A DNA stretch of 20,000 bases from an uncultured virus (IMG/VR IMGVR_UViG_3300027365_000012) (lineage: Duplodnaviria > Heunggongvirae > Uroviricota > Caudoviricetes): the IMG/VR virus record IMGVR_UViG_3300027365_000012; one strand, 5' to 3'. This document shows positions 7,798-16,770 of this stretch, in pieces. A program made the translations under genes and the position numbers. The notes below the pieces were generated by a model. The model did no database searches. It saw only the letters and a program-made list of their open reading frames with translations, and was not told where the DNA came from. Numbering within the stretch: the first letter of the stretch is position 1; each line of letters begins with the position of its first letter.

Positions 7798-7811
7798 CCT
7801 GTATTTACAGG
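7798..7811. promoter_or_regulatory. Palindromic motif CCTGTATTTACAGG within a perfect 11-bp-arm inverted repeat (7793-7816), upstream of the capsid gene
   Basis: TCGGACCTGTA-TT-TACAGGTCCGA. A degenerate second copy, CCCGTATTTGCGGT at 7775-7788, overlaps the capsid ribosome-binding region. Confidence 0.75.
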
Positions 7812-11212: not shown

Positions 11213-11233
11213 ACTGTATTTACAGGTTTACGG
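11213..11233. promoter_or_regulatory. Palindromic motif ACTGTATTTACAGG plus adjacent half-site TTTACGG, abutting the portal start codon
   Basis: The 14-mer at 11213-11226 lies 2 nt from the portal ATG, where an SD would be expected; no SD is evident. Confidence 0.7.
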
Positions 11234-13800: not shown

Positions 13801-13814
13801 CCTGTAAATACGGC
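13801..13814. promoter_or_regulatory. Palindromic motif CCTGTAAATACGGC
   Basis: Intergenic copy of the recurring motif, downstream of the putative terminase small subunit gene. Confidence 0.6.
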
Positions 13815-14540: not shown

Positions 14541-14822
14541 TTACGCCTCGGCCCGTACCTGGTCGGGGTTCGCGCTGTAGGTCAGCACCGTGCGAGCTGG
14601 GACGTTGACCGGATTGCTCACGATGCCGGGGTTGATCGTACGGGCCTTGTACTGGCGAGCCCGGAACTTGCCGAAGCCGCGGAGCGTGAGGTGGCCTTTA
14701 TCGAAGGTCAGGTGGCTGATCCCTTCCAGGGTGGCTTCCACGGCTTGCTTGGCAGCTGCTTTGGTCAGGCCTGTGCGGTCGGCGACGTGGGAGATGAGGT
14801 CTTTCTTGGTGGCGTAGGTCAT
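14541..14822 (-). CDS. HU/IHF-family DNA-binding protein
   Basis: ATG at 14822 after AGGA; 93 aa. TKKDLISHVADRTGLTKAAAKQAVEATLEGI...LTLRGFGKF...KAR..NP....V.VPAR matches the HU signature. Confidence 0.92.
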   Translation of the reverse strand: MTYATKKDLISHVADRTGLTKAAAKQAVEATLEGISHLTFDKGHLTLRGFGKFRARQYKARTINPGIVSNPVNVPARTVLTYSANPDQVRAEA

Positions 14823-14919
14823 GGTCGTTGTCCTGTTCTTCTTGGGTTCAGGTCTCGGCGAGGTCCGATTGTTGGCTTCGGGAGTGGCCGACGTCCTCGA
14901 CACACCATGAAGCTGTAAA

Positions 14920-14933
14920 CCTGTATTTGCAGG
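14920..14933. promoter_or_regulatory. Palindromic motif CCTGTATTTGCAGG with adjacent half-site CTGTAAA (14913-14919)
   Basis: Upstream of the first gene of the minus-strand operon; overlaps the predicted start site of the leftward promoter. Confidence 0.7.
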
Positions 14934-14938
14934 AGTGC

Positions 14939-14967
14939 AGGTTATGGCCCACTTCCTGGGTTGTAAA
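14939..14967 (-). promoter_or_regulatory. Putative sigma70-type promoter for the HU/terminase operon
   Basis: -35 TTTACA (14967-14962), 17 bp, -10 TAACCT (14944-14939), with A/T tracts upstream. Confidence 0.45.
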
Positions 14968-15151
14968 GGGATTTCCTGGTGAAATTATGGCGAAATTGGC
15001 GGTTTTGTGGCTATAAAAGTATAAATAGCTAAGAAAAATGCAAAATTTTTGCGCGCGGAGGTAGGCGGGCTGTGACGCCTCCTATAACAAAAAAAGAGGG
15101 CCGGGGTCAGCTCTTATGCTTTTATATTCTTATCTTTTCCGCGCTTGTCGC

Positions 15152-15180
15152 TTGTTTCTACTGTTTTGCTTACGTATAGT
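15152..15180 (+). promoter_or_regulatory. Putative sigma70-type early promoter
   Basis: -35 TTGTTT (15152-15157), 17 bp, -10 TATAGT (15175-15180). AT-rich upstream (15113-15138). Predicted start about 15187. Confidence 0.6.
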
Positions 15181-15264
15181 TCATTCCGTGGCCAGGCAAT
15201 TACTGGTGGCCACCGAGGCAAGCTCCACCGCCTCGCCTGGCACTGGCTTTGCCTGCGCCTCGAC

Positions 15265-15276
15265 CGTTCTTTAAAC
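15265..15276 (+). promoter_or_regulatory. boxA-like antitermination element
   Basis: CGTTCTTTAAAC versus rrn/phage boxA YGCTCTTTAACA, about 80 nt after the predicted start and directly after a stem (CGAGGC 15214-15219 / GCCTCG 15257-15262). Confidence 0.5.
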
Positions 15277-15564
15277 CTGCTGGCTTGCCGCTCTGACCGA
15301 GCGGCTTTGATTGAGTCACGACGGCGCAGCTTGCGCCGTTGCGGATAGCCTCGCCAATTGTCTGACAATGGCTGGCGCTACCATTACTGGATGAACACCC
15401 GGCGACACTGGCGCCGAGTGCCGATAGTGGAACCAAAGCGCAAGAGGCAACACGCCAGACGGTCAAAGCCTCGGCGGGCATGGCGCCCCGCTTTGCAGCC
15501 TACGGGCATGCAGGGCGAAGCCATGCCCGACGATCGAGAAGACGGCTCGCACTGCATTGGGCGG

Positions 15565-15578
15565 CCTGTAAATACAGG
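15565..15578. promoter_or_regulatory. Palindromic motif CCTGTAAATACAGG capping an 11-bp stem (15560-15583)
   Basis: GGCGGCCTGTA-AA-TACAGGTTGCC, with two G-U pairs on the + strand. Confidence 0.7.
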
Positions 15579-15857
15579 TTGCCGGATCATTAAAAACTCA
15601 AAGCTCCGACCATCGATCTGCGCCCTACTGCGCCCCTTGTGTCGCTCGCCTGCTATCTGCCGCCAGTGTCGGCGATAGCGCCAAAGTCGAGCGGCGCATG
15701 GCGCTACAAAACGGGCCCTATCGACCGGAGCATGGAAACGAATCGAGCGGCTGGGAAGCCAGCCGCTCGCATAGTGCCTTCGACAATGCGCCCGACTAGG
15801 ACGCATTGCAGAAAGTATTAAAGAAAATCAGAAAGCTAATCGACCGGAGTTCCCACC

Positions 15858-16574
15858 ATGTCCAAAGCCAACAAAGTCACCGTCACCATTCGCGGCAAAG
15901 TCATTACCGCTCAACAAATCGCCGCTTTCGGCAAGGGCCTCGCCGCTCAATCCGACGTTATCACTACCTGGGCGAATTACTGCGCGATTCACGCCGTAGT
16001 TCATCACAATATCGAGCCGCTGAATGCCATGCTGCAAAATGGCGCGTTTCGCCTGGCCACTGGCAAACTGTCGAAACTCGGCGGCGAAGTGGTATCGTAT
16101 ATCAAAGCGCACGCGCCGCAAGTCCAGCTGGACTCCAAAACCGGCCGCTATATCGTCGCCCGCATGAAACCCGATAATCCGCGCTTTAAAAAGTTTGCTA
16201 ATCCGGCGAACCTCGACGCCGACGACAAGCCGGCCATTGTCGATGCTGGCGACTTCGCCTTGACTTTCGATCAATGGCGCACGCTAGAAAAAGCCGCAAA
16301 AAAGCCAAACTCGGCTCCACTGAAGGCTTCAACAGTCGCTAATCAATTGACCAAAGCGCTCGACGCGATCAATTCGAAAGCGTTTTCCGCCACGGCCGAA
16401 GAGGCGCGCGAACTGGCAAAGCAACTGTCGGAGCTGTTTGTGACTGTCGATTTTGTTGCCTCCCAACTGGCCAGCAAAGCCGAGCCAGTAGACGACGGCA
16501 AAGTGACCGAGCTGCTGAAAAGTGGCCAGTCTGGCAAGTCGAAACGCGCCGGTGGCAAAGTCGCCGACGCTTAA
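15858..16574 (+). CDS. Hypothetical early protein (238 aa, Lys/Ala-rich)
   Basis: ATG with GGAG SD, long clean ORF followed by a strong terminator. Lys is mostly AAA, unlike the AAG-dominated structural genes. Confidence 0.88.
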   Translation: MSKANKVTVTIRGKVITAQQIAAFGKGLAAQSDVITTWANYCAIHAVVHHNIEPLNAMLQNGAFRLATGKLSKLGGEVVSYIKAHAPQVQLDSKTGRYIVARMKPDNPRFKKFANPANLDADDKPAIVDAGDFALTFDQWRTLEKAAKKPNSAPLKASTVANQLTKALDAINSKAFSATAEEARELAKQLSELFVTVDFVASQLASKAEPVDDGKVTELLKSGQSGKSKRAGGKVADA

Positions 16575-16595
16575 CGGGATAAATCCGCCCGCCGA

Positions 16596-16609
16596 CCTGT
16601 ATTTACGGG
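16596..16609. promoter_or_regulatory. Palindromic motif CCTGTATTTACGGG capping a 13-bp stem (16589-16616)
   Basis: CCGCCGACCTGTA-TT-TACGGGTCGGCGG, immediately before the terminator. Confidence 0.7.
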
Positions 16610-16618
16610 TCGGCGGAT

Positions 16619-16646
16619 AGCCGCCTTCGGGCGGCTTTTTTCTTTT
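16619..16646 (+). terminator. Rho-independent terminator
   Basis: GCCGCC-TTCG-GGCGGC stem with a UUCG loop, followed by TTTTTTCTTTT. Confidence 0.92.
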
Positions 16647-16694
16647 CGCGCGCGCGCGTGTACGCACATACGCGCCCCGCCGCGCGCCCTGGAG

Positions 16695-16770
16695 AAAGCC
16701 GCCGAAAGGCCGCTGAAAAAGTCCTGAAAAGTCCGGAAAAGTACCGGAAAATCGGCAATAGCACCGAAAT
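16695..16770. repeat. Phased A-tract array (degenerate ~10-11 bp repeat such as GAAAAGTCCG)
   Basis: A-tracts start at 16695, 16705, 16716, 16727, 16737, 16748, 16757 and 16767. Confidence 0.8.

Follow-up and report, generated by a model that had tools for sequence, protein, structure and literature searches.

The 20,000-nucleotide (nt) stretch of DNA analyzed here (from an uncultured virus of the Caudoviricetes, IMG/VR record IMGVR_UViG_3300027365_000012; 62% G+C; referred to at its full length as the window) contains two divergently oriented blocks of genes. Minus-strand structural and packaging genes, including those for tape measure, tail tube, S49 protease, portal, and gpA-type large terminase, extend up to an HU-like gene at 14541-14903, and plus-strand genes start at 15858 with a gene for a 238-amino-acid (238-aa) protein. 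The divergent region between the two blocks, which adjoins the HU gene and the terminase genes, contains a sigma-70-type promoter sequence, a boxA, and, from 15187 to 15857, a segment of about 670 nt, here termed the leader, that is conserved in related viruses, has no detectable coding signal, and exhibits a covarying secondary structure (Table 1).

Relatives were identified in viral and metagenomic contigs, for which the 238-aa protein and conserved DNA words served as queries. A homologous leader precedes the same 238-aa gene in 14 distinct sequences, including the window, which fall into three clades: a close clade of ten (the window, L002, L003, L004, L005, L006, L007, L012, L020, and L033), L019, and a distant clade (L008, L021, and L022). 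The leader is syntenic with the 238-aa gene in every relative found. For seven close relatives, identity to the window is 85-97% in the leader vs. 73-88% in the gene; for L019, L021, and L022, it is 53-63% in the leader and 59-67% in the gene. Five further candidates were dropped: L027 and L028, from a DNA-pattern scan of genome contigs, were chance matches unlike the leader, and L014, L016, and L017, from an 18-mer scan of viral contigs with ten stretches, matched over just 18-19 letters. A protein-pattern scan of genome contigs yielded no relative, and blastn of 14900-15900 against 50,697 GenBank phage records yielded no match.

Cultured relatives were reached only via proteins. The nearest are the Pseudomonas phages Lana, PMBT3, and UAntarctica, which have terminases 55-60% identical, and 238-aa homologues 28-31% identical, to those of the window. 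In all three, the 238-aa homologue is preceded by 841-906 nt that lack annotation and include a promoter-like site, a canonical boxA, and additional blocks common to the three phages. One 238-aa homologue is labelled Stutzerimonas stutzeri; the G+C content is compatible with such a host and does not by itself prove it.

An earlier annotation made from the letters of the window and a program-made list of its open reading frames (ORFs), hereafter the sequence-only reading, had proposed a large structured RNA at this position, free of ORFs and preceded by a promoter and a boxA-like element. The results indicate that the leader indeed does not encode protein. No open frame is common to all 13 aligned leaders; the only start codon inside the leader that is preceded by a Shine-Dalgarno sequence, TTG at 15806, is unconserved; and the first conserved gene starts at 15858. 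The variable columns are distributed 70/68/68 over the three codon phases in the leader, that is, without codon periodicity, vs. 72/45/175 in the downstream gene. Open frames of 50-150 codons are present on both strands of the leader, as expected at 57-62% G+C.

The leader folds more stably than expected by chance. The minimum free energy of the plus strand of 15187-15857 is -310 kcal/mol, vs. -253 +/- 7.5 kcal/mol for 60 dinucleotide shuffles (z-score -7.6), and the minus strand has a z-score of -4.25; a run with 20 shuffles gave -8.7 and -4.1, respectively. Both strands thus fold better than shuffles. The PMBT3 leader folds with z-scores of -6.7 (plus strand) and -5.3 (minus strand), and the leaders of the three Pseudomonas phages have double-side changes in 45 of 133 predicted pairs, a count from only three sequences. 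To define the fold, we derived a nested consensus from the mean base-pair probabilities of ten individually folded leaders, placed on the alignment, and scored its pairs in 13 sequences. The consensus comprises 184 pairs, with 88.2% of cells paired. Changes on both sides of the pair are observed for 61 of the 184 pairs, vs. 39.6 +/- 3.6 in shuffles (0/500 shuffles reach the observed value), and there are 170 double-change cells, vs. 58.3 +/- 5.9 in shuffles; when partners are slid by 1-3 columns, the counts are 16-24 covarying pairs and 24-38 cells. RNAalifold, applied independently to the same alignment, gives 128 pairs, 54 of them with compensation. We conclude that 15187-15857 has the compensatory changes, the conservation, and the absence of coding signal of a structured non-coding RNA.

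The covariation distinguishes between the helices that the sequence-only reading had quoted, all of which are present in the window at the positions it gave. Its eight local stems jointly show both-side changes in 22 of 65 pairs, vs. 10.6 +/- 2.1 in shuffles (0/500), and six of the eight hold as proposed. The other two probably pair elsewhere. The arm 15214-15219 pairs at least as well with a nearer copy of its partner at 15230-15235 (three covarying pairs, 91% of cells paired) as with the distal copy proposed earlier at 15257-15262 (one covarying pair, 86% of cells paired), and 15522-15529 pairs with 15475-15482 rather than with 15503-15510, which is disfavoured because it clashes with a hairpin at 15488-15518 that has three covarying pairs. 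The five nested long-range helices fare differently. They are complementary in the window, and covariation gives them no support: 7 of 44 pairs change on both sides, vs. 5.9 in shuffles (172/500 shuffles reach 7), and there are 14 double-change cells, vs. 3-16 in slid controls. Changes that break these long-range pairs are compensated within local domains, namely, within the domain designated D4 in L003 and L020 (TT to GC at 15637-15638) and within the domain designated D2 in L004 and L005 (a rearranged 15420-15430 arm). The multi-branched core of about 300 nt that had been proposed, closed by helices between 15373-15448 and 15632-15683, is thus not borne out, and the covariation favours separate domains D2 and D4. 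What stands of the original proposal is a conserved, ORF-free, plus-strand element behind a promoter and a boxA; its nested-core architecture does not stand. For the packaging or prohead RNA at which the sequence-only reading hinted, the analysis gave evidence in neither direction; synteny links the leader to the 238-aa gene and the early block, and the packaging genes are on the opposite strand.

The fold supported by covariation starts with hairpins P1, P2, and P3. In P1, L020 has A-U in place of G-C, and L005 and L006 show the series C-G, U-G, U-A. In P2, three of five pairs covary (e.g., A-U to G-C in eight sequences), and the alternative partner may still be used. P3 is replaced by a different hairpin in the distant clade. 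A scan flagged P3 as terminator-like; we rejected P3 as a conserved terminator because its U-rich tail is unconserved (L002, L007, and L012 have not kept it, and the segment there covaries within the next helix).

Domain D2 has up to four pair types per column in its closing helix. In a structure-aware alignment of 11 leaders, D2 comprises 56 pairs, for which 97% of cells are paired; both-side changes are seen at 16 of them, vs. 8.8 +/- 1.7 in shuffles (0/500) and 2-4 in slid controls. A D2 covariance model matches 11 of 17 sources searched, corresponding to the close clade plus L019. In L004 and L005, D2 is altered by a deletion of 19 nt and an insertion of 34 nt (L004:2411-2600 and L005:2420-2609), with locally compensated stems; the inner arms of D2 therefore are remodellable, and the closing helix is kept. 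In domain D3, three pairs covary in the stem and three in the inner hairpin, which has 93.5% of cells paired; the arms are GGCATGG/CCATGCC in the window and GGCAAAG/CTTTGCC in the distant clade. In L020, about 45 nt of additional sequence, itself an inverted repeat (GCAGTTTGCGCC...GATTGCAGGG), is inserted after D3 and before the motif hairpin (L020:1630-1680). The motif hairpin itself varies in tip length among relatives.

A covariance model of domain D4 matches 14 of 14 leaders searched, with E-values of 1e-16 to 1e-17 in the distant clade. In the structure-aware alignment of D4, which comprises 36 pairs (96% of cells paired), both-side changes are seen at 15 pairs, vs. 5.4 +/- 1.6 in shuffles (0/500) and 2-8 in slid controls. 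Structure-aware alignments lean to the model by construction; the slid controls for D2 and D4 nevertheless give just 2-8 pairs. Downstream of D4, the hairpin at 15772-15820 has an equivalent in the distant clade and in the Pseudomonas phages, followed there by a ATAACCCACTA-like sequence.

Table 1. Features of the leader and of the first gene of the rightward unit (positions in the window)
Feature	Position	Strand	Remark
T-rich block, possible UP-like element	15112-15150	+	upstream of -35 hexamer
Sigma-70-type promoter TTGTTT-17-TATAGT	15152-15180	+	predicted start near 15187
Hairpin P1, GTGGCCA/TGGCCAC	15188-15213	+	2/7 pairs change both sides
Hairpin P2, CGAGGC/GCCTCG	15214-15235	+	second copy of 3' arm at 15257-15262
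boxA, GTTCTTTAAAC	15266-15276	+	10/11 match to GYTCTTTAANA
Hairpin P3, GCCGCTC-TGACC-GAGCGGC	15287-15305	+	10 nt after boxA; in 10/13 aligned leaders
Domain D2	15303-15470	+	closing helix 15303-15313/15460-15470
D2 inner hairpins	15319-15341, 15353-15372, 15399-15417	+	
D2 inner stems	15375-15379/15437-15441, 15381-15394/15418-15430	+	
Domain D3	15475-15529	+	stem 15475-15484/15520-15529 around hairpin 15488-15500/15505-15518
Motif hairpin	15556-15587	+	tip is palindrome CTGTAAATACAG (15566-15577); stem base covaries
A-rich linker, CATTAAAAACTCAAA	15588-15602	+	conserved; unpaired in consensus
Domain D4	15603-15731	+	closing helix 15603-15608/15726-15731
D4 long irregular hairpin	15637-15699	+	apical stem-loop 15652-15679, loop CCAGTGT
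Hairpin CGAGCGGCTGG-GAAG-CCAGCCGCTCG	15744-15769	+	7/11 pairs change both sides
Long irregular hairpin	15772-15820	+	includes CAATGCG/CGCATTG; 8/20 pairs covary
Unstructured A-rich stretch	15821-15857	+	Shine-Dalgarno GGAG at 15846-15849; unpaired in consensus
First gene of unit, 238-aa protein	15858-16574	+	
Motif hairpin, then intrinsic-terminator-like hairpin with T-run	16588-16646	+	hairpins 16588-16613 and 16619-16636

D2 and D4 are related to each other in sequence. In L006, the D2 model has a match (21 bits, E 0.005) on the minus strand of D4, and the converse search with the D4 model gave a weak match to the minus strand of D2; D2 and D4 therefore are partial reverse complements. Possible explanations of this complementarity are an ancient duplication in inverted orientation, a second conformation of the RNA, and contact between the loops ACACTGG (15405-15411) in D2 and CCAGTGT (15663-15669) in D4. 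The pairing between the two loops spans 11 base pairs (bp) in the close clade, a length that 0-3 of 300 shuffles reach, and shrinks to 7 bp in L003 (77/300 shuffles reach it); L019 has a different, 9-bp complement (22/300 shuffles reach it). A loop-loop contact is, on these alignments, suggestive only.

Several observations bear on the question of which strand folds. The promoter sequence and the boxA are both oriented in the plus (rightward) direction. When each strand of each homologue is folded, 166 consensus pairs have a mean probability of at least 0.5 on the plus strand, vs. 68 on the minus strand. The union of the predictions for both strands contains 183 G-U cells vs. 93 A-C cells, the pairs predicted on both strands contain 27 vs. 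19, and, in the hairpin at 15488-15518, U-G is present at two adjacent pairs in 13/13 and 12/13 sequences. A strand-neutral test, in which a G-U-free fold of the window was used, gave 114 G-U vs. 120 A-C cells in the other sequences, i.e., no bias, and the substitution pattern by itself leaves the strand unsettled. Given the promoter and the boxA, together with the plus strand's larger z-score and more consistent folds, we consider it most likely that the folded molecule is plus-strand RNA.

The promoter sequence named in the sequence-only reading is present at 15152-15180, and its hexamers are conserved among 13 leaders, with a spacer that drifts. The -35 variants are TTGTTT, TTGCTT, TTGACT, and TTGCAT, and the -10 variants are TATAGT, CATAGT, TACTAT, TAATAT, and TATTAT; UAntarctica and PMBT3 have TTGCAC and TTGCTC, respectively, as -35 and TAGTAT as -10. 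In the T-rich block upstream, positions 15112-15132 are invariant in 7/7 close relatives, and the distant clade and the Pseudomonas phages have T-rich tracts at the equivalent position; the block possibly functions as an UP-like element. Judged from the type and position of the promoter, the RNA would be transcribed from this site and would be made early.

The boxA element at 15266-15276, also anticipated by the sequence-only reading, is the most strongly conserved element of the 5' module. The gamma-proteobacterial boxA consensus is GYTCTTTAANA (PMC5725501). The match is 11/11 in five of 15 leaders (L008, L021, PMBT3, Lana, and UAntarctica) and 10/11 in the remaining ten, and the first nine letters, GYTCTTTAA, are invariant in 15/15. 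This core is the sole block in the 5' module that is common to the deepest clades (15 leaders, three deep clades), and it occurs once in the 20-kb window, vs. 0.07 occurrences expected. The boxA is located 86 nt after the -10 element and 581 nt upstream of the start codon of the 238-aa gene, and it is unpaired in the consensus structure, with hairpins on both sides. From this match and position we infer Nus binding and antitermination at 15266-15276. In lambda-type nut sites, boxA is closely followed by a boxB hairpin, whose GNRA-like pentaloop is recognized by an N-type arginine-rich protein. Here, the hairpin that follows is P3, which has a 7-bp stem and a 5-nt loop (TGACC), and which has a different counterpart in the distant clade. 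No N-like protein is recognizable among the neighbouring ORFs scanned, a missing match that is compatible with the presence of one. At the position of the A-rich linker, the distant clade has GTTCTTTTATAA or GTTATTTAACAA, and the Pseudomonas phages have a second CTCTTTAACAT or CTCCTTAACAT farther downstream; the linker is, by resemblance, possibly a degenerate second boxA.

According to the reading that we favour, to which we assign a probability of about 0.5, 15187-15857 is an untranslated, multi-domain, structured, boxA/Nus-loaded, cis-acting 5' leader of a rightward, early-type transcription unit. The host-type promoter at 15152-15180 would drive transcription of the leader; the boxA, about 80 nt into the transcript and unpaired between hairpins, would be bound by host NusB-NusE(S10); and NusA, NusG, and SuhB would then turn RNA polymerase into an rrn-type, Rho-resistant complex able to cross about 590 nt of further untranslated RNA and possibly also to pass the hairpin-terminator behind the first gene into a long co-directional block. 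Of the 77 PMBT3 genes between the leader and position 33647, 76 are co-directional with the leader. Such a complex, which would hold the 5' RNA close to the polymerase, may also promote formation of the long-range helices that close D2 and D4. The domains of the fold, together with the hairpin adjacent to the ribosome-binding site, would probably stabilize the mRNA and/or set translation of the 238-aa gene. PMC5725501 reports that Nus factors can block Rho without N, that their principal role at rRNA is in RNA folding, and that the stretch from nutL to the start of lambda N is highly structured.

Several points weigh against this reading. The promoter at 15152-15180 is not listed by a simple consensus promoter scan, because its -35 hexamer is weak, matching the consensus at only three of six positions, and the boxA of the window misses the final consensus position. 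The minus strand also folds better than shuffles, and the strand-neutral test lacks a G-U excess. Rrn-type complexes are chiefly known to act against Rho. Read-through of the intrinsic terminator at 16619-16646 without a phage factor is therefore doubtful, and the unit may consist of only the leader and one gene; a stable hairpin is present 3' of the 238-aa gene in 14/14 relatives examined, with a canonical T-run in 6/14, including the window. The D2 model has no match in the distant clade or in the Pseudomonas phages, and the D4 model has none in the Pseudomonas phages. Alignment of the 5' module of 15 leaders by sequence alone yields just seven consensus pairs. What is demonstrably shared as far as the Pseudomonas phages is thus only the outline of the element. 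Finally, a boxA alone needs about 12 nt, which leaves about 500 nt of covarying structure unaccounted for. This unexplained structure gives real weight to readings in which the leader is processed or is a riboregulator.

The first of these, a serious minority possibility, is that the leader is the precursor of stable trans-acting RNAs, with D2 and D4 excised at their closing helices in the manner of rRNA, with the boxA protecting or chaperoning the untranslated RNA, and with the freed RNAs acting on a host or phage partner, e.g., as decoy or scaffold. The presence of two autonomous domains, each with a covarying long-range closing helix, is in accord with excision, as is a large conserved structured core that goes beyond the needs of boxA function; the order of strong promoter, upstream T-rich block, hairpins, and boxA resembles that of an rrn leader, and Nus factors chiefly assist RNA folding at rRNA (PMC5725501). 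Against excision, the closing helices have 6-12 pairs and are shorter than classical RNase III stems as generally described, and the RNA always runs into a gene with a good Shine-Dalgarno sequence, which is typical of a leader. A more specific version, to which we give slightly less credence, is that this phage group carries a miniature mimic of an rRNA operon, in which a strong host-type promoter and the boxA direct the host machinery for rRNA transcription and folding to a viral multi-domain RNA, and from which D2 (about 168 nt) and D4 (about 129 nt) are released or displayed as functional RNAs. Beyond any role as a leader, D2 and D4 would then be decoys or scaffolds for a host factor active in RNA binding, ribosome assembly, or defence, and their complementarity and the ACACTGG/CCAGTGT loops would be a tertiary or conformational feature.

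Somewhat less probable again is that the leader is a translational or attenuation regulator of the 238-aa gene, bound by the 238-aa protein itself or by another early factor and switching between alternative pairings (two arms with two partners each, and D2-D4 complementarity). The strict leader-gene synteny in all relatives would be expected of such a regulator, the unit has a hairpin or terminator as its boundary, a hairpin with covariation is located 26 nt upstream of the Shine-Dalgarno sequence, and duplicated arms (GCCTCG twice and CGGGCATG twice) and the resemblance of D2 to the reverse complement of D4 would provide for alternative pairings. However, covariation backs one fold and gives no positive support to the alternatives, and 670 nt far exceeds the size of operators of this kind that are known. 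Nor does the 238-aa protein have a recognizable RNA-binding fold or family: its 90 homologues include none with a functional name, it has no Pfam or PHROG family, a sequence-profile search of the PDB gave only a match at E 0.006 to a designed protein, Foldseek gave nothing at E<=0.001, the top VIA-align match (Z 5.3, to a helical hairpin) is uninformative, and the ESM Atlas gave unnamed viral clusters only.

We regard as improbable that the inverted repeats act as DNA, i.e., as an origin of replication, as a region involved in packaging or associated with cos, or as a series of palindromes bound by protein, with hairpins forming in single-stranded DNA or as cruciforms. The location in a divergent region beside the HU and terminase genes would suit such a function, as would the folding of the minus strand, the outcome of the strand-neutral test, and a hairpin tip that is a palindrome found at seven intergenic sites. 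The conserved plus-strand G-U pairs, however, would be A-C mismatches on the minus strand; the plus strand has by far the larger number of consistent pairs; and the promoter and boxA face in the direction needed to read the region. In addition, at 15657-15675, L003 has a stem whose sequence is wholly replaced and a loop that is kept, as in an RNA stem and unlike a protein site, and the constant companion of the leader is the 238-aa gene rather than the packaging genes. An overlooked protein, encoded, e.g., by a 140-aa minus-strand frame at 15384-15806 or a 106-aa plus-strand frame at 15358-15678, is very improbable, since the several 50-150-codon frames on both strands include none common to the clades, the 19- and 34-nt indels in L004 and L005 and the even distribution of variable sites over codon phases are unlike a gene, and neither frame has a Pfam match.

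Other sites are conserved or repeated around the leader. To the left of the leader promoter, a conserved block, AAATTTTTGCGCGCGGAGGTAGGCGGGC (15040-15075), has a core (GACCTAGGCG-like) that it shares with the distant clade and the three Pseudomonas phages; the block could be a cos-associated site or belong to the promoter region of the leftward genes. For the HU operon, a promoter-like site is located at 15013-14984 on the minus strand. The Pseudomonas phages have one to three tRNA genes between an HU/IHF-like gene and the leader, on the opposite strand (L023:2044-2364, L024:1708-2065, and L026:1602-1672); the window has none. A 12-bp palindrome, CTGTAWWTACAG, occurs at seven intergenic sites of the window (about 2825-2834, 7799-7810, 11214-11225, 13802-13813, 14921-14932, 15566-15577, and 16597-16608), with 14 strand-hits vs. 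0.6 expected. The palindrome often tips a GC-clamped hairpin, is sometimes followed by a second TTTACAG, and at the majority of sites immediately precedes minus-strand structural genes. Its candidate functions are those of a phage-wide operator, a late promoter, and a hairpin for RNA processing. Because the CTGTAAATACAG motif is found at these seven sites, the tip of the motif hairpin in the leader may function as a site in DNA. The 220 nt that separate the terminator from the next gene (16795) include a (CG)n tract at about 16650-16662 and direct repeats of a GAAAAGTCC-like unit at about 16700-16760.

The leader matches no known RNA family, and the sequence-only reading had likewise recognized none. 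A cmscan of the 20-kb window against Rfam 15 gave no matches; at E<=1, 14800-16000 gave just two, of 22 and 19 bits vs. gathering thresholds of 80 and 40; and the loci of six relatives gave only seven tRNA matches. Among known systems, boxA-dependent control is textbook knowledge for rRNA operons and lambdoid phages. The leader resembles the rrn operon leader in having a host-type promoter, an upstream T-rich block, hairpins, a boxA of the gamma-proteobacterial consensus that is predicted to be unpaired, and, after the boxA, a long untranslated structured RNA with domains closed by long-range helices; it differs in that the phage boxA is followed by an RNA other than rRNA, which continues into a protein-coding gene. 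The lambda nutL/N leader (PMC5725501) likewise has an early phage promoter, a 5'-proximal boxA, a hairpin a few bases on, and a structured untranslated stretch. Unlike lambda, the present leader is about three times longer, has a post-boxA hairpin loop, TGACC, that is not of the lambda boxB type, belongs to a phage in which no N-like arginine-rich protein is recognizable among the neighbouring ORFs scanned, and has relatives that are virulent, non-lambdoid siphophages; the abstract describing PMBT3 calls that phage virulent.

HK022 put RNAs and EAR are RNA-only processive antitermination elements of about 70-120 nt for which boxA is not needed. Like them, the leader is a structured RNA directly behind an early promoter that could act in cis on polymerase; it differs from them, going by general descriptions, in size and in having a boxA, and it has no Rfam match. 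GOLLD and ROOL are described as stand-alone genes. They share with the leader a length of more than 500 nt, several domains, strong covariation, a phage location, and the lack of a known function, whereas the leader matches no Rfam model and is a 5' leader that has a boxA and runs into a gene. BoxA sites are also known upstream of CRISPR arrays, i.e., before a repeat array. Finally, boxA elements upstream of suhB and other genes (PMC5725501) are boxA elements outside rRNA operons that, as proposed for that of the leader, recruit Nus factors to control how Rho acts on RNA that is poorly translated; those are at most about 50 nt from the start codon, whereas the phage boxA is 581 nt away and is followed by folded RNA.

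We found no account of this leader in the literature searched on boxA, phage antitermination, structured RNA, and Pseudomonas phages; a term search of the text of the Lana paper, and passages of the PMBT3 paper, gave no mention of the region. If our reading holds, what is new here is a conserved, covarying RNA of about 670 nt that is fused to a boxA and heads the early genes of virulent Pseudomonas-type siphophages. The leader would then define a new family of large phage RNAs with cultured representatives, PMBT3, Lana, and UAntarctica, in which the proposals made here are testable. It would also mean that a non-lambdoid lytic phage borrows the antitermination and folding machinery of host rRNA, and it would provide a concrete system in which to ask what such large leaders do.

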